Below, in pieces: positions 12,067-60,296 of a DNA stretch of 64,000 nucleotides. Origin of the DNA: a bacterium (GTDB taxonomy: Bacteria; Patescibacteriota; CPR2; UBA1875; JAJYID01); contig JAJYLR010000001.1 in NCBI GenBank assembly GCA_021787535.1, positions 556,321 through 620,320 of the forward strand, read 5' to 3'. The number at the start of each line of letters is the position of its first letter. The stretch's first letter is position 1. The notes under the pieces are model-generated. The model was not told where the DNA came from. It searched no databases and saw only the letters and a list, made by a program, of their open reading frames with translations. The translations under genes and the position numbers were made by a program.

Positions 12067-12147
12067 TCCCACCCTCCTTTGTCATTCCCGCGCAGGCGGG
12101 AATCCAGAATTTATTTGTATAGATTCCGGATCAAGTCCGGAATGACA
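12061..12147. repeat. Cluster of 3 palindromic repeat units (tgtcattcc / gtcattcccgcgcaggcgggaatcc / gattccggatcaagtccggaatgac)
   Basis: Imperfect hairpin units with GTCATTCC...GGAATGAC ends in the clpP-tig spacer, overlapping the clpP RBS and start. The last unit is the reverse complement of the copy at 56788-56812. Confidence 0.7.
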
Positions 12148-17247: not shown

Positions 17248-17334
17248 TGGTGCCGCGGGGGAGACTCGAACTCCCAATCCGGTTAAGGAACTAGTTCCTA
17301 AGACTAGCGCGTATACCAATTCCGCCACCGCGGC
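17248..17334 (-). tRNA. tRNA-Leu (anticodon UAG), with encoded CCA
   Basis: Reverse complement GCCGCGG...CTAGT-CTTAGGA-ACTAG...GGGAGTTCGAGTCTCCC-CCGCGGC-A-CCA. It has a 7-bp acceptor stem, anticodon loop CU-UAG-GA, a long variable arm and a GTTCGAGTC T-loop. Confidence 0.85.
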
Positions 17335-17432
17335 TAAATGTTGAACTATTCTATCATGTATCCTTACCGAAGTTAAGCATAAAAATCAAGTATTGGTTCC
17401 ATTCAATTACCAAAAAATTATGCAAAGAGAAA

Positions 17433-17454
17433 GGGCGCCTTTATTAAGGCGCCC
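17433..17454. terminator. Hairpin gggcgcctTTATTaaggcgccc flanked by A/T runs
   Basis: 8-bp GC stem. The minus-strand reading is followed by tttctctttgcataatttttt, so it could terminate a minus-strand transcript from the ORF-free region 17460-18300. Confidence 0.45.
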
Positions 17455-18030
17455 AGTTGCGATCAATAAAACGTGGGGAAATAAGAGATCGCAATATTCA
17501 CACAGTGCACTTATTACTTAAATTAATGAGATGACTTTCCCCAAAATCATCTCTTTCATCATAGCTTTTCCGTTTCTGTCTTTTTATCTAAGATGGTCTT
17601 CCATCAAGTGTGAAGCACTTTGACCCTTCAGAGTTGGAGTTATAGAACTCGAGCTCGGATCTAGTATTTACAACACTCTTTAAAAGGTCTTAGCATCGAC
17701 AACTACGGTACTTGCTACGACGGCTACTGATCTTTTCTTTTGCCCCTAACAATCTACCGTCGGCCGGAGTGCAAGTGATTTTGCCTACTCAAGACCGATT
17801 TCGGTCAAGGGAAACTGGCGCAATTCTCTTACAGCTACTCGAGCCCAATTGGTAAAGGGTATGTGACGACAAAAGTACCCAATCAGTAACACTAAATATG
17901 ATACACTAACTTCAAAATTTTGTCAACATTTTTCTGGCTCTCTAACCTTTAGCGTGGTAAATTCGTGCTTACTTGAGCACAAAAAAGTTGTCCGGACAAG
18001 TTTTAGAGTAAATTAATTTTTTTGCGTCTT

Positions 18031-18108
18031 GTCATTCTGGCTTGTCCAGAATCAATTTTTAAGATTTAAGGAAAAGGATTCCGGTCTCCTAATCGTCGCC
18101 AGAATGAC
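18031..18108. repeat. Composite palindromic repeat gtcattctggcttgtccagaatc ... gccagaatgac
   Basis: An inner hairpin attctgg/ccagaat plus an outer inverted repeat gtcattctggc/gccagaatgac 55 nt apart. The same 23-mer recurs at 21171, 55912 and 60215. Confidence 0.65.
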
Positions 18109-18448
18109 AATACTCATAAGATTTATTATTGCCAAGATTTACCACGCTAATCGGCGAAGAGTCCCATTTTTCTGATTTTTTAATTCCCTAAATTAAAAAG
18201 TCCCTTACGAGATCAAAAAACGTTTCGCATTAATTAGTGAAAAATGAAAAACAAACTAGAGTCTTCTTCCTTAGCAACTTACTAGCTTATCAACCATATT
18301 TCTTATTTAAAAGGCGCGGGGTCGCCGCGCCTTTCCGCTCGGATAGCGGCAATCCTGCTTATAAAGATAAGCACATATAAATTACTTATCCACCACCCTT
18401 AGATAAATTTTACAGCCGCCAAAAATCCAAAACAAGTATACAAAAATT

Positions 18449-18480
18449 AGCGGAGACTTACGTAAGTCTCCGCTTTTGTT
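18449..18480. terminator. Bidirectional terminator agcggagacttACGtaagtctccgct + TTTT
   Basis: 11-bp perfect stem with T tracts on both strands, immediately after the stop of the minus-strand 77-aa gene at 18480. Confidence 0.65.
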
Positions 18481-18713
18481 TAGCCATTTTCTGCTTCCTT
18501 GATGATCTCTTCCGGAATGTCCAATTTGTGTTTTTTGCAAAAATCACTTAACGACATTCCCGAATCAGCATCAATCCATATTGCCTCCAAATCAGGACAA
18601 TCATCGATACCCCAGAGGAGTATTTCCAGAACCTTCTCGGCACTTTCTATAGAGATATTCCATTTTTGGCTGGCATACGATGCAAGGGTTGTTTCGTCCA
18701 CCTTCATGCCCAT
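18480..18713 (-). CDS. Hypothetical small acidic protein (77 aa)
   Basis: ORF MGMKVDETTLASYASQKWNISIESAEKVLEILLWGIDDCPDLEAIWIDADSG...; 13-nt spacing to the upstream gene and shared terminator. Confidence 0.5.
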   Translation of the reverse strand: MGMKVDETTLASYASQKWNISIESAEKVLEILLWGIDDCPDLEAIWIDADSGMSLSDFCKKHKLDIPEEIIKEAENG

Positions 18714-20631: not shown

Positions 20632-20981
20632 TTTTTACTCTCTAGGACTTGGATCCTTATCCCAAGCGCACCATATTTTTCCTCTTTTTCCTTCGGATAG
20701 TAGTTCACATAAGTTGATGATATAAAATCTTCCCTGTTCCAGTTTCTAAAATGCCTTTCGCCCAGCAAATCATAAAGTTCGCCAAACGTTTTGCAAGATA
20801 TTAGTTCAACTACCTCAACCAAGAGTTTTTCAGCTAAATCAGGTCTTTTTAAGAACTCAATTTTGTCGCCAATCCTAAGTTTCTGCCTTTTCTCATCATT
20901 AAGCCGCACTTCGACAGTCTTTTCTCCGCTTTTCAGCTCTTCGAAGGGTCGTGCATTTAATCTCATATAATGTGTTTTCAT
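20628..20981 (-). CDS. ASCH domain protein
   Basis: 117 aa; MKTHYMRLNARPFEELKSGEKTVEVRLNDEKR... resembles the ASCH (PUA-like) beta-barrel N-terminus. 4-nt start/stop overlaps with both neighbours. Confidence 0.55.
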   Translation of the reverse strand: MKTHYMRLNARPFEELKSGEKTVEVRLNDEKRQKLRIGDKIEFLKRPDLAEKLLVEVVELISCKTFGELYDLLGERHFRNWNREDFISSTYVNYYPKEKEEKYGALGIRIQVLESKK

Positions 20982-21418
20982 AAACTTACCTGATTCTTAA
21001 TTTGCTCAAATTTACTTTCTCCGATTCCCGGCACTTTTTTCAAATCTTCCAGTACTTTAAATAATCCGTTTTGGTTGCGCCAATCAATGATTTTTTGTGC
21101 CGTTGCCGGACCGATGCCCTGTAGCTTATCTAAATCTTGCAAATCGGCGGTGTTTATATTAATTTTTGCCGTCATTCTGGCTTGTCCAGAATCTGTCTGC
21201 CCGCCCTTTACTTCAGAATTTGTCTGAATGTCAGTCTTTTGCGGCTGGACAATTTTAATCGGCTCTTTGCCGTCATCCGAATATTTAATAAAGAGCAGTC
21301 CTGTCCCGCCGATAATACCGATCACCAGTAAAATGCCTATGTTATTATAGATTCTCTGTCTTCTATCCTTTTTTTGATCTTGATCCATAAAACCTTTAAT
21401 ATTCAATGCCGAAAACAT
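20978..21418 (-). CDS. comEA: ComEA-like helix-hairpin-helix DNA-binding protein
   Basis: N-terminal TM segment and C-terminal INTADLQDLDKLQGIGPATAQKIIDWRNQNG.F..LEDLKKVPGIG (tandem HhH). Contains an in-frame copy of the 23-nt repeat encoding DSGQARMT. Confidence 0.75.
   Translation of the reverse strand: MFSALNIKGFMDQDQKKDRRQRIYNNIGILLVIGIIGGTGLLFIKYSDDGKEPIKIVQPQKTDIQTNSEVKGGQTDSGQARMTAKININTADLQDLDKLQGIGPATAQKIIDWRNQNGLFKVLEDLKKVPGIGESKFEQIKNQVSL
21171..21193. repeat. Palindromic repeat gtcattctggcttgtccagaatc inside comEA coding sequence (in frame)
   Basis: Identical 23-mer to 18031 and 55912. On the minus strand it translates as ...DSGQARMT... within the ComEA ORF. Confidence 0.7.
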
Positions 21419-25587: not shown

Positions 25588-25713
25588 GTCATTCCGACTG
25601 ACACCACGCCAGTGGCGAATGGAGGAATCCTTTTCCTCTAGTAACTTACCAACTTATAAACTCTTTCAAGGGATTTCTCGACTCGTCGCTCCGCGAAGTC
25701 GTTCGAAATGACA
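25588..25713. repeat. Two palindromic repeat units (gtcattccgactgacaccacgccagtggcgaatggaggaatcc; ggatttctcgactcgtcgctccgcgaagtcgttcgaaatgaca) upstream of recG
   Basis: Same GTCATTCCGA...GGAGGAATCC family as 30699, 55004, 56480 and 56750. They are preceded by an AT-rich CCAAT array (25535-25568). Confidence 0.7.
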
Positions 25714-30578: not shown

Positions 30579-31232
30579 CTACTGAGACACAAATTTATTG
30601 TCTTTGATTGTAAACCGCCAAAGCTTATCGCGGTAAATGTCGGCATAGTCTATGCCAATGCGTTTTGAGGTTTCGATTTTAAATTTATTAAAGAAAGAGA
30701 TTCCTCCACTCGTCGCTCTGCGAAGTCGGTCGGAATGACAGAGAAAAGGATCCTCAACCCAAACGCGATCTGAATCCGTAATGTCTTCATCGTAGAATGT
30801 TTTATCCAGATTAAGGGCGGCGCACAGTTTACCCGGCCCTTTCATGAAATCTTTGTCCGAGCGAACCCGGCCGAAATTTCTTAAATTTTCTCTGGCAAAT
30901 TCAATTCCGCCAACCGGTTCAAGGGCGCGGATTAAAACTGCCTCCGGCACATGTTCCTTTGCAGTTACAATATTGAAGTTATAGTACATCCCATAAATCA
31001 GATAGATGTAAATATGGCCGGCTGCACCATACATGACTTTGTTGCGCTCGGTTTTGCCATTACGCGCGTGGCAAGCCAGGTCTTCTTCGCCGACATAGGC
31101 TTCAGTCTCGACAATTTTGCCGCTAATAATACCTTGATCGGTTTTTCTGACTAATATTTTACCTAGGAGTTCCGGCGCCACCTCTAGCACCGGCCGCTCA
31201 AAGAATGTTCGATCCAATTTTGAATTTTGCAT
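30579..31232 (-). CDS. DNA-3-methyladenine glycosylase (Mpg/AAG family)
   Basis: VETEAYVGEEDLACHARNGKTERN...YGAAGHIYIYLIYGMYYNFNIV matches the Mpg family. The C-terminus contains an in-frame palindromic repeat. Confidence 0.8.
   Translation of the reverse strand: MQNSKLDRTFFERPVLEVAPELLGKILVRKTDQGIISGKIVETEAYVGEEDLACHARNGKTERNKVMYGAAGHIYIYLIYGMYYNFNIVTAKEHVPEAVLIRALEPVGGIEFARENLRNFGRVRSDKDFMKGPGKLCAALNLDKTFYDEDITDSDRVWVEDPFLCHSDRLRRATSGGISFFNKFKIETSKRIGIDYADIYRDKLWRFTIKDNKFVSQ
30699..30740. repeat. Palindromic repeat gattcctccactcgtcgctctgcgaagtcggtcggaatgaca inside the 3mA-glycosylase coding sequence (in frame)
   Basis: Same family as 25671-25713; translated as LCHSDRLRRATSGGI within the ORF. 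Confidence 0.7.
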
Positions 31233-49511: not shown

Positions 49512-50999
49512 CTAATTACTATTTCCTAATTTCCTGGCTAAAGTTTCGTTCACTGCCTTCGGATTTGCTTGGCCGCGCGTCTTCGCCATCACCTGGCCGA
49601 CTAGAAATCCGAATGCTTTTTCTTTGCCGGATTTATAATCTTCCACAACTTTGGGATTCGCCTCCAAAACATCGTCAATGATTTTCCCGATTTCGCCCGT
49701 ATCTGTAATCTGTTTCATTCCTCTTTCTTCGATTATACCATAGCAACTTTTGCCTGTCTTAAACATTTCGGCGAAAACTTGCTTTGCCTGTTTGCCGCTA
49801 ATTGCGCCTTTTTCTATTGAAGCCATAAGCTCTGCCATGTTTTCCGGCTCGATTTTAATTTCACTAATTCCAATAGAGATCTCATTCATTTTTCCGGCAA
49901 GTTCCGAGGTCATCCAGTTGGCTAATCTAATAGCGTAATTTTTCATAATCTCGGAGTTCTTGGCCGTCTCCCCGATGTGTTCCAGTGTTTTTTCGAAATA
50001 ATTTGCCATATCTAGATCATCGGCCAGATAATTGGCGTCTTTCTTATTTAATCCATATTCCAAAGCAAATCGCGCCTTTTTCTCCCAAGGTAGTTCCGGC
50101 ATCATACTCTTGATTTTTTCAAGATCAATCGCATTCTCGTCGCCTTTTCTTGTGGTAATCGGCGGAATATCCGGCTCCGGAAAGTAACGGTAATCATGGG
50201 CTTCTTCCTTTGACCTTTGCCCCAAAGTTTTTCCTTTTGAGTCATCCCAGCCGCGAGTTTCCTGATATATTTTCTTACCGTCATTTAAAAGATCAGATTG
50301 TCTCTCGATTTCGTAGTTCACAGCCCGTTCGATCATTTTGAAAGAGTTCATATTTTTGACCTCGACCTTGGCGCCGAGCTTTTTCTCATCATATTTACGC
50401 AGTGAAATATTAACGTCGCAACGCAAATTCCCCTGCTCCATGTTTGCATCTGATATTTGTAGATGTCGCAGAAGAGATCGCAAAGTCTGCATAAATACCC
50501 GAGCTTCCGCCCCGCTTCGGAGATCCGGTTCCGTCACCATCTCAACAAGCGGTGTACCGGCACGGTTGAGGTCGACAAGCGAAGTGCCGTTTTTAGCATG
50601 CACCAGCTTCCCGGCGTCTTCCTCCAGATGAATGTGATGCAGGTGAATCTCTCTCTCGGCACCATTAACGTCAATCTTTAAGCCGCCTCCAATTACCGGC
50701 GGATTGGTGGCTGAGGAAATCTGATACGCTTTAGGCAGATCAGGGTAAAAATAGTTTTTGCGTTCAAAGTTAAACTCCTCGGCTATTTTTGCCTCCAGTG
50801 CCATACCGAGTAGCATCGTCCACTCGATGGCCTGCCGGTTCGGCACCGGCAAAGTTCCGGGAAATCCCATACACACCGGACAAACATTTGTATTCGGGTC
50901 TGCTTCGATGGAATGATTGTCGCTCCCGCAAAACATCTTAGACCTAGTCTTAAGCTGGGCGTGTATCTCAAGCCCTATCACTGCTTCATATTCTTGCAT
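49512..50999 (-). CDS. gatB: Aspartyl/glutamyl-tRNA amidotransferase subunit B
   Basis: 495 aa; MQEYEAVIGLEIHAQL...; CxxC zinc ligand, GatB/YqeY C-terminal domain. Confidence 0.93.
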   Translation of the reverse strand: MQEYEAVIGLEIHAQLKTRSKMFCGSDNHSIEADPNTNVCPVCMGFPGTLPVPNRQAIEWTMLLGMALEAKIAEEFNFERKNYFYPDLPKAYQISSATNPPVIGGGLKIDVNGAEREIHLHHIHLEEDAGKLVHAKNGTSLVDLNRAGTPLVEMVTEPDLRSGAEARVFMQTLRSLLRHLQISDANMEQGNLRCDVNISLRKYDEKKLGAKVEVKNMNSFKMIERAVNYEIERQSDLLNDGKKIYQETRGWDDSKGKTLGQRSKEEAHDYRYFPEPDIPPITTRKGDENAIDLEKIKSMMPELPWEKKARFALEYGLNKKDANYLADDLDMANYFEKTLEHIGETAKNSEIMKNYAIRLANWMTSELAGKMNEISIGISEIKIEPENMAELMASIEKGAISGKQAKQVFAEMFKTGKSCYGIIEERGMKQITDTGEIGKIIDDVLEANPKVVEDYKSGKEKAFGFLVGQVMAKTRGQANPKAVNETLARKLGNSN

Positions 51000-55003: not shown

Positions 55004-55051
55004 TACACTTGCTGTCATTCCGAGCGATCCGACAACCGCCGGACGACAAGC
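55004..55051. repeat. Palindromic repeat gtcattccgagcgatccgacaaccgccggacgacaagccgaggaatcc
   Basis: GTCATTCCGAGCGA...GAGGAATCC family member in the PPIase upstream region, followed by a CCAAT/ATTGG array at 55076-55175. Confidence 0.65.
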
Positions 55052-55178
55052 CGAGGAATCCCTTGGCTTTTAATTTACAATTTACAAGCCCCAATTTTCA
55101 ATGAATGAGTCAATGTTTCAATTTTCAAATTTATTAATTGGGACTTGATTGGTTATTAGTTATTGGAAATTGGTCATT

Positions 55179-56669
55179 CTAAACCTTTGGTTTATATTTT
55201 CTCCACTCTTCATTCCCTGTTGCTTTTTCGAACTGATGCGCAACATTCAGTATCTTCGCCTCTTCAAAATGTCCTCCAATAATCTGTATCCCGATCGGCA
55301 ATTTATCAGTTGAAAATCCAGCCGGGACAGAGATTGCCGGAAGACCTGCCAGACTTACCGGAACCGTGAAAACGTCCGCCAAATACATAGAAACAGGATC
55401 TGCCTTTTCGCCAATTTTAAACGCCGGGGTCGGCGCCGTCGGTGTCAGTATCACGTCAACGTGCTCAAATGCCTTTATAAAATCATCATGAATTAATCTC
55501 CTGACTTTGGCCGCCTTCATAAAATATGCATCGTAGTAGCCGCTTGATAAAACATAAGCCCCAAGCATAATTCTCCTCTTTGCCTCGTCGCCGAATCCTT
55601 CATCGCGTGTTTTGAAGTAAGAATCAATTAAATCCTTTGAATTTTTGGCTGAAAAGCCGTATTTTACCCCATCATATCGACCCAAGTTTGAGGATGTTTC
55701 GGCTGTCATTATGATGTAGTACGCCGCCAGCGCATATTCCGTATGAGGCAGGCTGATTTCAATAACTTCTGCTCCCATTTTTTCAAGGGTTAACAAAGAT
55801 TGCTTAAACACCTCGCCAACCTCATCAAATAGTCCCAGCCCAAAATACTCTTTTGGTACGCCTATTTTTAGGCCTTCGATGCCCTTATTCAAATCCTTGG
55901 TGAAATCGGTTGTCATTCTGGCTTGTCCAGAATCGTCCTTTAGTGTGGTCGCATCCTTCGGATCTTCCCCTGCAATCACATTCAAAACTATTGCCGCATC
56001 CTCCACTGTCTTCGTTATCGGCCCGGGACAATCCAGCGATGAGCCCATGGCAATCAGCCCATAACGCGAAACCCTGCCGTATGTCGGCTTTAGGCCTACC
56101 ACCCCGCAGAAACTCGCCGGCTGGCGAATAGATCCGCCGGTGTCTGTGCCAATGGAATATGGCACTTCGCCTGCCGCTACAGCTGCCGCCGAGCCTCCTG
56201 AAGAACCGCCGGAAACCCGGGCCAAATCCCAAGGATTGGGCGTCACACCATAATCGGAGTTCTCAGTTGAGGAACCATGCGCCCAAGCATCACAGTTGTT
56301 TTTTCCGACAACTATTGCTCCGGAGTCTTTTAATTTCTTAACTACGGTCGCATCATACGGCGGAACAAAGTTATCCAGCATCTTGGCACTCGCCGTCGTC
56401 CGCAAATTCCTCGTACAAATCACATCCTTAATCCCCACCGGAATACCTTGCAGAGGACTGTCCTCTGCACTACCGCCTTTGTCATTCTGAGCGACTTCCT
56501 GAAAGGACGAGTCGAAGAATCCCTTTCCCTCGACATCTTCCGCCGTAAGTGTCGTCACGAAAGCATGCAGCTTCGGCTCAACTTCCTTAATCCTACTCAA
56601 ACAAGCAGACAAAATCTCCCGCTTATCCTCTTTTTCTAATTCTTTAATTGGTAAATCTGTAATTTTCAT
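55179..56669 (-). CDS. gatA: Glutamyl-tRNA(Gln) amidotransferase subunit A
   Basis: Amidase signature ([20 protein letters not shown]...T.AS). Start assigned to [11 protein letters not shown]. Carries two in-frame palindromic-repeat insertions. Confidence 0.92.
55912..55934. repeat. 23-nt palindromic repeat gtcattctggcttgtccagaatc inside gatA (in frame, encodes DSGQARMT)
   Basis: Identical to the copies at 18031 and 21171. Confidence 0.7.
56480..56522. repeat. Palindromic repeat gtcattctgagcgacttcctgaaaggacgagtcgaagaatcc inside gatA 5' region (in frame, encodes [14 protein letters not shown])
   Basis: GTCATTC...GAATCC family. It replaces the normally variable loop between the N-terminal helix and the GIP(V/I)(A/G)IKD motif. 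Confidence 0.7.
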
Positions 56670-56749
56670 TTCTCTTTCCCTAAATAGGTCGGATCCTTGC
56701 GTGCTCGCCAGGCCCGACCTCCCAGCAAGCAATTTTTTATTATTCTCTT

Positions 56750-56855
56750 GTCATTCCGACCAAAGTGGAGGAATCCCTTTCCTATTTGTCATTCCGGACT
56801 TGATCCGGAATCTATATAAATCATTCCTGGATCCTGAATCAAGTTCAGGATGACA
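56750..56855. repeat. Cluster of three palindromic repeat units in the gatC-gatA spacer
   Basis: gtcattccgaccaaagtggaggaatc; gtcattccggacttgatccggaatc; tcattcctggatcctgaatcaagttcaggatgac. Confidence 0.7.
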
Positions 56856-56859
56856 TAAT

Positions 56860-57156
56860 TTATTCCAACACCGACTTTACTTTTATAAATCCATCCTCAT
56901 GTTTCGGCGCTTCTGATATAAGCTCTGCCGGCGTACCTTCAATCTTCTCAACTTTATCTTCACGCATCTCGTTTCTCTGCTCTATCCCCGCCGCCATCGG
57001 CTCAACTTTATCCGTATCCACTTCGTTTAATTTTTCTACATAACCTAAAATATCCGCCAAGTCTTTCTGGTACTTGGTAATTTCCTTTTCGGTCAGCCCA
57101 ACCCTCGCCAGCTTCGCCAAATATTCAACTTCTTCTTTTGATATTTTTCCCACCAT
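56860..57156 (-). CDS. gatC: Glutamyl-tRNA(Gln) amidotransferase subunit C
   Basis: 98 aa; ...LAKLARVGLTEKEI..YQKDL..IL.YVEKL.EVDT..VEP... typical GatC. Confidence 0.85.
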   Translation of the reverse strand: MVGKISKEEVEYLAKLARVGLTEKEITKYQKDLADILGYVEKLNEVDTDKVEPMAAGIEQRNEMREDKVEKIEGTPAELISEAPKHEDGFIKVKSVLE

Positions 57157-57166
57157 AACTCACTAA

Positions 57167-57733
57167 TTATACCTTATTTTGTTCTGGTATTAAATTTAAT
57201 CCCCAAAATTCATCTAGGGTTTTCTCAAATTTTTTTCTCAAGCCATGGGTATCATTCTCAAGATCATTGAGATACTCATTCATGCCATCAATTAAATCCT
57301 GTCCAAAGTCTTTAACACTAATATTCAAACACTGAGCTTGCCCCATTTTAGTCATTTTTAGATGAGATTGTTTATTGCTGTAGTGTATTCTCCAGGTATA
57401 AATATTATCTTGATAATCCGTTAGTGGCGCTGGCATCCCTGAATGTACTAATTTATGACGATATATCTGCTGAACTAATTTCATTTGATCCTTAGAGTAA
57501 TGCATATATTTAACCATAAATTTTTTAGCGTTATCCGCTTCTTTTCTTTTGTCATACCGACCAGTTAAGTAAGCTCCCATCAAGTCAATATTTGAGAAAC
57601 AATAAAGTAAAGCTACATAGGGAGCTGCTTCAATATGTGAATTTAAACAAAGAGAAACAATTTGGCTAATCGATTCCATCCTTAATTGTATTTGAGCAGC
57701 CCCAAAATATTTATGTGGATCATTAATATTCAT
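57167..57733 (-). CDS. Hypothetical protein (188 aa) embedded between ligA and gatC
   Basis: Intact ORF, 10 nt from gatC and 2 nt from ligA; AT-rich; no family recognised. Confidence 0.5.
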   Translation of the reverse strand: MNINDPHKYFGAAQIQLRMESISQIVSLCLNSHIEAAPYVALLYCFSNIDLMGAYLTGRYDKRKEADNAKKFMVKYMHYSKDQMKLVQQIYRHKLVHSGMPAPLTDYQDNIYTWRIHYSNKQSHLKMTKMGQAQCLNISVKDFGQDLIDGMNEYLNDLENDTHGLRKKFEKTLDEFWGLNLIPEQNKV

Positions 57734-60214: not shown

Positions 60215-60296
60215 GTCATTCTGGCCTGCCCAGAATCCCGTAGAAATAGATCCTGGTCAAGCCAGGATGACAAAAAAACGGGATCCGAAATGACAT
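60215..60296. repeat. Composite palindromic repeat (gtcattctggcctgcccagaatc + atcctggtcaagccaggatgac + gggatccgaaatgac)
   Basis: Three consecutive hairpin units with GTCAT/ATGAC ends; the first is a 2-mismatch variant of the 23-mer at 18031. Confidence 0.65.

Follow-up and report, generated by a model that had tools for sequence, protein, structure and literature searches.

The gatA gene and its two repeat segments

The sequence considered here is a 64,000-nt stretch of contig JAJYLR010000001.1 from an uncultured bacterium of the candidate phyla radiation (CPR), referred to below as the window. It contains gatA, the essential gene for subunit A of the Asp/Glu-tRNA amidotransferase, whose reading frame holds at two places members of a family of short palindromic repeats that is mostly intergenic elsewhere in the window. 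The gene, its two inserts, and a palindrome beside one of them lie as follows.

55179-56669, minus strand: gatA (Asp/Glu-tRNA amidotransferase subunit A), 496 aa from the ATG at 56669, host of both inserts
55912-55934, plus strand (tag antisense to gatA): site-2 insert, the exact 23-mer GTCATTCTGGCTTGTCCAGAATC, encoding DSGQARMT directly before the KIGVPKEYF strand
56480-56527, plus strand: site-1 insert, a long-class member of about 48 nt, TGTCATTCTGAGCGACTTCCTGAAAGGACGAGTCGAAGAATCCCTTTCC, encoding a 16-residue peptide between the N-terminal helices and GIPVGIKD
56449-56469, no strand: untagged perfect palindrome (10+1+10), TGCAGAGGAC t GTCCTCTGCA, in gatA beside the site-1 insert, peptide SAEDSPLQ, no GTCAT tag

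The original prediction, made from the letters of the window, had placed the 23-mer at 55912-55934 and a 43-nt family member at 56480-56522, both keeping the frame, and it holds on each point. The 23-mer recurs exactly at 18031 and 21171, and the second element, which starts at 56480/56481 and runs from its tag to GAATC as far as 56521, is followed by a conserved tail to about 56527 (~48 nt). gatA is a single uninterrupted minus-strand open reading frame (ORF) across both repeat segments, and its product matches the Pfam Amidase profile over residues 18-474 (E 3.9e-148). In addition, the Lys/cis-Ser/Ser triad (K102, S177, and S201) is invariant among 120 sequences, gatC lies directly upstream (56860-57156), and gatB is found both in the syntenic loci of relatives and as a window ORF (49512-50999); a peptidyl-prolyl isomerase gene lies downstream of gatA. 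With domain, triad, and gatC/gatB partners all present, the product is identified as the amidase-signature subunit of GatCAB. The protein is 100% identical to P0001, was recovered again from a separate ENA contig, and is 71-82% identical to GatA sequences labelled candidate division WS5 or Patescibacteria group, WS5 being placed by NCBI under bacterial candidate phyla. Because the orthologues begin at the ATG at 56669 (MKITDLP), this is most likely the true start. The TTG at 56732, 21 codons upstream, is used by P0001 (517 aa) and by the program that listed the ORFs, and the 517-aa frame is probably an over-extension from a mis-called start; the extra 5' stretch (56670-56732) includes a 7-bp inverted repeat, AGGTCGG ... 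CCGACCT, at 56686-56720.

Extraction of every GTCATTC in the window with its context yielded one family, with constant ends, (T/C)GTCATTC ... GAATC, around a variable self-complementary middle. The excess over expectation is large: GTCATTCYGR occurs 12 times against 0.49 expected, GTCAT with a directly adjoining perfect stem of at least 6 bp is found at 15 sites against 2.2 in random sequence, and the exact 23-mer is found in three copies against 0.00 expected in 100 shuffles, with two further variants of it at 60215 and 60249. Copies of the short class measure 23-25 nt, a stem of 7-8 bp enclosing a loop of 4-5 nt. Those of the long class measure 30-50 nt and read GTCATTCYGA(G/C)C - inner hairpin - GA(G/A)GAATC(C/T)CTT(T)CC; the pattern GTCATTCYGASC-N15-40-GARGAATCYCTT, which represents this class, occurs 3 times in the window against 0 expected. 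Aligned with four further copies from the window, the gatA element at 56480-56527 has 21 invariant columns, among them TGTCATTC, GA..GAATC, and the tail CTT, and it shares its CCCTTTCC tail and its ends with the intergenic long copies. As DNA, the 23-mer folds into a 7-bp stem with a 5-nt loop (-5.2 kcal/mol, z = -4.25), and short copies as single-stranded DNA fold much better than shuffled sequences (z about -4.3 to -4.6). The possibility that these hairpins act as terminators was rejected, as they are weak, lie within an ORF, and are followed by no T-run. A scan of the whole window against Rfam at the gathering threshold returned one tRNA-Leu only, so that the repeats match no curated RNA family.

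Alleles of the insertion sites in GatA orthologues

The window GatA was aligned with the 15 proteins closest to it and with six GatA proteins that are more distant, and six genome loci plus two further loci were compared codon by codon at the DNA level. Site 2 lies between AG.D..D.T and KIGVPKEY, and site 1 between KLHAFVT and GIPVGIKD. Both had been described beforehand as variable positions of GatA, a description with which the comparison agrees, as the orthologues differ at both sites and the solved structures are gapped there.

Without a repeat, site 2 is a six-residue linker (e.g., SDSQVL), as in the distant GatA proteins and in P0007/L001, P0009/L003, P0012, and P0013. The identical 23-mer, encoding LK(D/N)-DSGQARMT, is present in the window, L002, P0004, and P0008. 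Other orthologues are filled in other ways: P0011 has DSRFRGND, from a member resembling the Neisseria repeat NTS (see below); in L083, a longer hairpin encloses a 23-mer-like unit; in L082, two complete elements precede the final 10 nt of a 23-mer; L005 and L006 have long composites; and in L004, the site holds a copy from an unrelated palindromic family. The copies in L082 and L083 are nested or in tandem. As at least four different elements are found at site 2, this site has been hit or remodelled repeatedly. The second palindromic family, TTTCACACACTCCAGGTG ... CACCTGGAG(A/C)GTG with the peptide VSHTPGEK..HLE, lies in frame in gatA at site 2 of L004 and at a third site of L006; a search of the window for it (CACWCCAGGTG) returned no copy.

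Site 1 shows a similar picture. A short segment lacking repeat DNA is found in L001, L002, and several others, the long element is common to the window and P0002/L082, the 23-mer, again encoding DSGQARMT, is found in L005, L006, and L083, and L003 has another short variant. At the third site, which is close to the C-terminus, L005, L006, and P0016 have an insert and the window has none. The untagged palindrome beside site 1 is present at the same place in orthologues with a filled site 1 (L005 at 2859-2879, L082, and L083) and in none where site 1 is empty; its two arms have changed together among the orthologues (GAGGAC/GTCCTC, GAAGAC/GTCTTC, and AAAGG/CCTTT). The alignment with the relatives, which the original prediction had proposed as its own check, shows that the segments are lineage-specific, being absent or replaced by other family members, and that the peptide segment is missing wherever the repeat DNA is: in L001, whose GatA has no insert at either site, in L003, P0012, and P0013 at site 2, and in L002 at site 1. 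The outcome that was to refute the prediction, orthologues encoding the same peptides without any repeat, is therefore not observed.

In the solved GatA structures 3H0L and 4WJ3, the gap relative to the window protein at site 2 is of six residues. A model of the window protein was computed with AlphaFold from the 120-sequence alignment (a 22-sequence alignment gave a mean pLDDT of 62 and was not used), its residues being numbered as in the 517-aa P0001, that is, from the TTG at 56732. This model has a mean pLDDT of 87.5 and a pTM of 0.91 and superposes on the Aquifex GatA 3H0L_A with a TM of 0.95. The site-1 insert (residues 69-87) has a pLDDT of about 50-55, and the site-2 insert (267-274) is a coil in a block of pLDDT 75-80, the flanks exceeding 90 in each case. 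Both inserts are therefore modelled as low-confidence coil between confident core elements, and the loops would be solvent-exposed and clear of GatB, GatC, and the tRNA.

It could be argued that the two segments go back to the ancestral GatA or were created by the assembly, and that their likeness to intergenic repeats is a coincidence, since both sites are variable in GatA generally and no clean boundary is seen in gatA. However, the site-2 segment is identical at 23/23 positions to two other sites of the window and to at least 120 stretches of metagenome DNA whose contexts are unrelated, while the distant GatA proteins and the solved structures do not have the segments. Moreover, the same protein comes from a separate ENA contig, and relatives obtained in other studies carry the same or sibling elements. 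We consequently give this explanation practically no weight.

Family membership and copies in other genes

Repeats of this kind have been described in other bacteria. Among the repetitive extragenic palindromes (REPs), the CGTC-tagged ones, whose tag frequently reads TGTC, combine an 8-9-bp stem that begins with AT, a loop of 4-5 nt, and a short tail, and occur mostly as inverted dimers; Neisseria dRS3 and two Rickettsia palindromic elements (RPEs) of R. conorii, RPE-4 and RPE-6, have been assigned to them, and in-frame intragenic copies are known from Opitutus terrae, Thauera, Xanthomonas, and other bacteria, with replication and repair genes as frequent hosts (Di Nocera et al., 2013; PMC3733652). 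More recently, the Neisseria NTS, given as CGTCATTCCCGCGMAVGCGGGAATCYRG, was reported to be cut as single-stranded DNA by SsnA, a 94-aa GIY-YIG protein that together with NTS modulates and limits transformation in Neisseria, and NTS-like "Ssn-related motifs" (SRM) were reported to flank ssn genes across phyla (2025; PMC11893778).

Every copy in the window starts with (T/C)GTC, and in 135 unique 23-mer copies GTC is preceded by T in 61%, C in 33%, A in 6%, and G in 0%. The stems uniformly begin with AT; they are 8 bp long, with loops of 4-5 nt, in the NTS-like and CCGG copies, and the long class, including gatA site 1, has an outer stem of only 5 bp plus an inner hairpin. The copy at 12080-12107 (TGTCATTCCCGCGCAGGCGGGAATCCAG) is the Neisseria NTS with the first base alone changed, and it fits both the NTS and the SRM patterns. 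These sequence features place the repeat, a stem-loop with a YGTCAT tag, in the CGTC-REP / dRS3-NTS / Ssn-related-motif superfamily.

With the CGTC REPs, the window repeats have in common the CGTC/TGTC tag at the 5' end, the AT-starting stem, the 4-5-nt loop, the short tail, and the frequent inverted dimers, as well as the presence of several sub-families in one genome and of occasional in-frame copies in replication, repair, or translation genes. They differ in the stem of the 23-mer, which is 7 bp instead of the published 8-9 bp, in the interrupted stem and inner hairpin of the long class, and in their host, the CPR being absent from the five phyla reported (PMC3733652). With dRS3/NTS, they share the near-identical copy at 12080-12107 and, in CPR contigs, GIY-YIG loci with a hairpin-gene-hairpin layout (see below). 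In contrast, the stem sequence of the gatA copies is different (TCTGG/CCAGA, or GAGCGA...), and neither intragenic in-frame copies nor Patescibacteria are discussed in the Ssn study (PMC11893778). The GTAG REPs and BIMEs associated with RAYT are likewise short, extragenic, tagged hairpins, often in inverted pairs, with an enzyme gene bounded by repeats; however, theirs is a GTAG tag and an HUH tyrosine transposase, instead of a CGTC-type tag and a GIY-YIG nuclease. Members of the same superfamily were also met near gatA in a gammaproteobacterium, Alloalcanivorax xenomutans (L078, 8917-8999), as the inverted tagged hairpins GTCATGCCGGACTCGATCCGGCATC / GTCATCCCGGGCTTGACCCGGGATC.

The Rickettsia elements had been put forward as a precedent. 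This stands as regards the in-frame insertion into housekeeping genes: as with the RPEs, and especially RPE-4 and RPE-6, palindromic repeats lie in frame in unrelated housekeeping genes of a reduced genome and add a peptide at permissive positions, here twice in gatA and once each in a ComEA-like gene and a glycosylase gene, with empty sites in orthologues. Nevertheless, the relation is more than an analogy, as RPE-4 and RPE-6 have the anatomy of CGTC-tagged REPs and belong to the same superfamily, a link that follows from their published classification (PMC3733652). The hosts differ, an alphaproteobacterium for the RPEs and a CPR bacterium here, as does the length, RPE-1 measuring about 100-150 bp against 23-50 nt. 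The further claim that such behaviour would be notable in an unrelated lineage has to be toned down, as in-frame intragenic copies were already known beyond Rickettsia (PMC3733652).

There are about 17 family copies in the window, mostly intergenic, with four within genes, and five inverted pairs are formed (12081/12146, 18031/18108, 25588/25712, 56788/56854, and 60215/60271). Outside gatA, the copies recorded are these.

12080-12146: intergenic inverted pair, 12080-12107 (plus), TGTCATTCCCGCGCAGGCGGGAATCCAG, and 12122-12146 (minus), GTCATTCCGGACTTGATCCGGAATC
18031-18108: intergenic inverted pair, exact 23-mer at 18031-18053 (plus) and 32-nt variant at 18077-18108 (minus)
21171-21193, plus strand: 23-mer in the ComEA-like gene (20978-21418, minus), in the same frame, encoding DSGQARMT in the linker before the helix-hairpin-helix (HhH) domain
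25588-25712: intergenic inverted pair of the long class, 25588-25629 (plus) and 25672-25712 (minus)
30695-30739, minus strand: long-class copy in the gene for methylpurine DNA glycosylase (MPG; 30579-31232, minus), in frame and sense, encoding CHSDRLRRATSGGIS
55014-55064, plus strand: intergenic long-class copy downstream of gatA
56750-56854: three family copies in the gatC-gatA spacer, 56750-56778 (plus), 56788-56812 (plus), and 56830-56854 (minus), the last two an inverted pair
60215-60271: intergenic inverted pair of 23-mer variants, 60215-60237 (plus) and 60249-60271 (minus)

For the MPG copy there is a clean empty site: L087 has an orthologue of 71% identity from which exactly 18 aa (54 nt) are missing, and in the window protein the Pfam match spans 204 residues for 180 profile positions. 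In L083, gatB also carries an NTS-like copy.

Metagenome contigs were scanned for the 23-mer, which was found in at least 120 stretches, with 132 copies among the matches listed, to which all counts in this paragraph refer. Open frames of 150 aa or more contain 32 of these copies, with 21 well inside such a frame, and roughly 1/6 to 1/4 of all copies fall within long ORFs. Eighteen of the 21 interior copies are antisense to the gene, and in 12 the frame read is that of DSGQARMT (P = 2e-4 if the five open frames were used equally); the more hydrophobic frames of the repeat are found mainly in hydrophobic contexts. Recognisable hosts include a P-type ATPase (after DKTGTLT) and GatB-like, YchF-like GTPase, and ligase-like proteins, and many of these copies are in-frame dimers. 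L159, which carries the exact 23-mer, has a GatA only 54% identical to that of the window; therefore, the exact 23-mer is common to quite distant lineages.

The window has a G+C content of about 42%, the majority of its genes on the minus strand, and a negative GC skew throughout. Single copies have their GTCAT tag on the plus strand at 21171, 25588, 55014, 55912, 56481, and 56750 and on the minus strand at 30739, so that almost all are tagged opposite to most genes. Together with the antisense majority in the metagenome loci, this points to a strand preference connected with replication or transcription, beyond selection on the peptide alone.

Association with Ssn-type nucleases and origin of the inserts

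Seven of the 120 listed metagenome loci with the 23-mer (L086, L101, L125, L172, L201, and L202, and L118 with a variant) encode a protein of 95-100 aa consisting of a GIY-YIG domain only (Pfam E 1e-13 to 5e-16). Six of these loci have a forward element immediately upstream of the gene and a reverse one immediately downstream, L118 having forward copies on both sides; in L086, L101, and L202, the 23-mer even provides the TGA stop codon of the ORF (...ILDKPE*). A tblastn search of a plasmid collection matched two gonococcal records of 2.17 Mb, in which the corresponding locus has a 94-aa ORF between NTS copies. Over its full length, it shares 47% and 54% identity with the two types of CPR protein (E 9e-30 and 6e-37), the latter being homologues of gonococcal SsnA, and the hairpin-gene-hairpin layout of the CPR loci is the NTS-ssnA-NTS architecture described previously (PMC11893778). 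A protein search retrieved 2,437 Ssn homologues at E <= 1e-10; among the matches listed, the named ones come from Levybacteria and Woykebacteria, many on contigs of about 1 kb. NCBIfam gave no informative name for the CPR GIY-YIG proteins, and a search of the PDB gave no Ssn structure, the nearest entry being the UPF0213 protein 1ZG2 (E 0.012). The two gonococcal records (NZ_CP119140.1 and NZ_CP119142.1 in PLSDB, both Neisseria gonorrhoeae) are evidently chromosomes labelled as plasmids.

Taken together, we consider it quite probable that selfish hairpin repeats of this superfamily entered the reading frame of gatA in a WS5-like CPR bacterium, where they are tolerated, and that they are associated with Ssn-type nucleases. 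YGTCAT-tagged copies would enter the gene and survive where the frame is kept, the frame used has no stop, and the segment is structurally permissive and variable, so that the ribosome would read through and GatA would gain short, presumably neutral loops around an intact amidase core. As the 23-mer bounds the ssn genes as inverted copies, an Ssn-type GIY-YIG enzyme, which this genome may itself encode, presumably spreads or maintains the repeats by acting on hairpins extruded in single-stranded DNA. Selection would then remove most genic insertions and leave survivors biased toward the hydrophilic frame and toward loops.

Several observations weigh against this explanation. The inserts of gatA show neither a duplicated target site nor a clean boundary, and filled and empty alleles differ by a net +6 aa, not by the 8 aa of the element; a local remodelling of the site must therefore be assumed, with insertion boundaries blurred by later change. 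The neighbour-joining tree of the 16 close GatA sequences is star-like and leaves gains and losses unordered, so that a single old insertion followed by losses or replacements is inseparable from repeated insertion. The long site-1 element on its own folds weakly, no better than shuffles (z = -1.0). One of the approximately 17 window copies, and neither of those in gatA, fits the SRM pattern HGTCWYN(0-2)YYVSBRHN(0-5)WNVSBRGN(0-2)RNCYNB, although this pattern was built by hand from 29 genomes of four phyla (PMC11893778), and failing it does not exclude relatedness. Finally, a motif search of the 64-kb window and of the close relatives' syntenic loci (L001-L006, L082, and L083) found no GIY-YIG gene, and the named homologues belong to Levybacteria and Woykebacteria; the link between the nuclease and this genome is therefore indirect. 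For Ssn itself, DNA cutting and a limit on transformation have been demonstrated, not transposition of the repeats (PMC11893778).

An alternative is mobilisation by another enzyme, such as an IS200/IS605-type or RAYT tyrosine transposase, or by none, through replication slippage, template switching, or gene conversion between hairpins, the Ssn association being incidental. In its favour, no dedicated transposase of the CGTC repeats was found by Di Nocera et al. (PMC3733652), there is no ssn gene in the window or in the relatives' loci, and members with common ends (GTCATTC...GAATC) replace one another at the same sites and form nested copies, as would fit recombination or template switching. 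However, no transposase-like ORF was noticed beside any copy, and chance is insufficient to explain a 23-mer abutting Ssn-family genes on both sides in six of seven loci, with the stop codon supplied in three; the same hairpin-ssn-hairpin architecture has, in addition, been reported across phyla (PMC11893778). We regard this alternative as rather unlikely.

Another view is that the inserts have been domesticated, for example as Ssn cleavage sites that limit the recombination of incoming DNA at essential genes, in the manner of NTS in Neisseria, or as surface loops with a role in the transamidosome. The exact 23-mer is kept across genomes whose GatA proteins are only 54-80% identical, the use of frames is non-random, and the palindrome next to site 1 stays paired through changes on both arms. 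Moreover, transformation in Neisseria is modulated by SsnA/NTS (PMC11893778), and one of the genes in the window is for a ComEA-like DNA-uptake protein. Nevertheless, L001 has neither insert, and the occupants of the sites differ among relatives, which points to tolerance and not to a required function, and exact conservation of the repeat would be expected anyway if the nuclease recognises it or if the copies are young. The copies are also strongly depleted from coding sequence, about 24% being in long ORFs among the matches listed, against the approximately 90% of a CPR genome assumed to be coding. Domestication thus seems decidedly improbable.

Going beyond the explanation preferred here, that of tolerated insertions associated with Ssn, one could imagine hairpin-ssn-hairpin as an ancient cross-phylum element resembling an insertion sequence (IS), whose solo hairpins target existing hairpins and thereby drive length variation in CPR proteins. 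If solo hairpins insert at or next to existing ones, the same loops of essential proteins would be hit repeatedly. The signatures of such targeting would be the near-identical 24-28-nt hairpins in Neisseria and CPR, the nested copies, and the palindrome that remains paired through changes of both arms. We mention this as a speculative extension, which we think could be true but doubt.

The CGTC/NTS superfamily, including some Rickettsia elements, and its in-frame copies beyond Rickettsia were already known. Within the material searched, three things are new: the host lineage, the finding that different family members have repeatedly used the same two sites of GatA, and the presence in CPR contigs of Ssn-type genes with the 23-mer at their borders; the literature searched contained no report of such repeats in CPR, or of their link to an Ssn-type nuclease gene there. 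In-frame colonisation of housekeeping proteins by CGTC/NTS-type hairpins, and their Ssn association, thereby extend to the CPR and its very small genomes. For work on CPR genomes, the practical consequence is that the repeats make proteins longer, fragment assemblies, as with the many Ssn genes on contigs of about 1 kb, and can mislead the calling of start sites and of homology. Furthermore, the filled, empty, and differently filled alleles of gatA, together with the 54-nt empty site of the glycosylase gene, are natural material for studying the insertion mechanism, which both the 2013 REP survey (PMC3733652) and the 2025 Ssn paper (PMC11893778) left open.

Two further regions of the window may be mentioned. 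Positions 17340-18600, which adjoin the tRNA-Leu (17248-17334) and the repeat pair at 18031-18108, comprise about 1.2 kb with no ORF above ~80 aa and have no Rfam match at the gathering threshold. Between ligA and gatC, a 188-aa ORF (57167-57733, minus strand) has no Pfam match; L082 has a homologue of it at the same position, and L083 has unrelated genes of 659 aa and 286 aa between ligA and gatA. The interval is thus a variable spot within an otherwise syntenic region.

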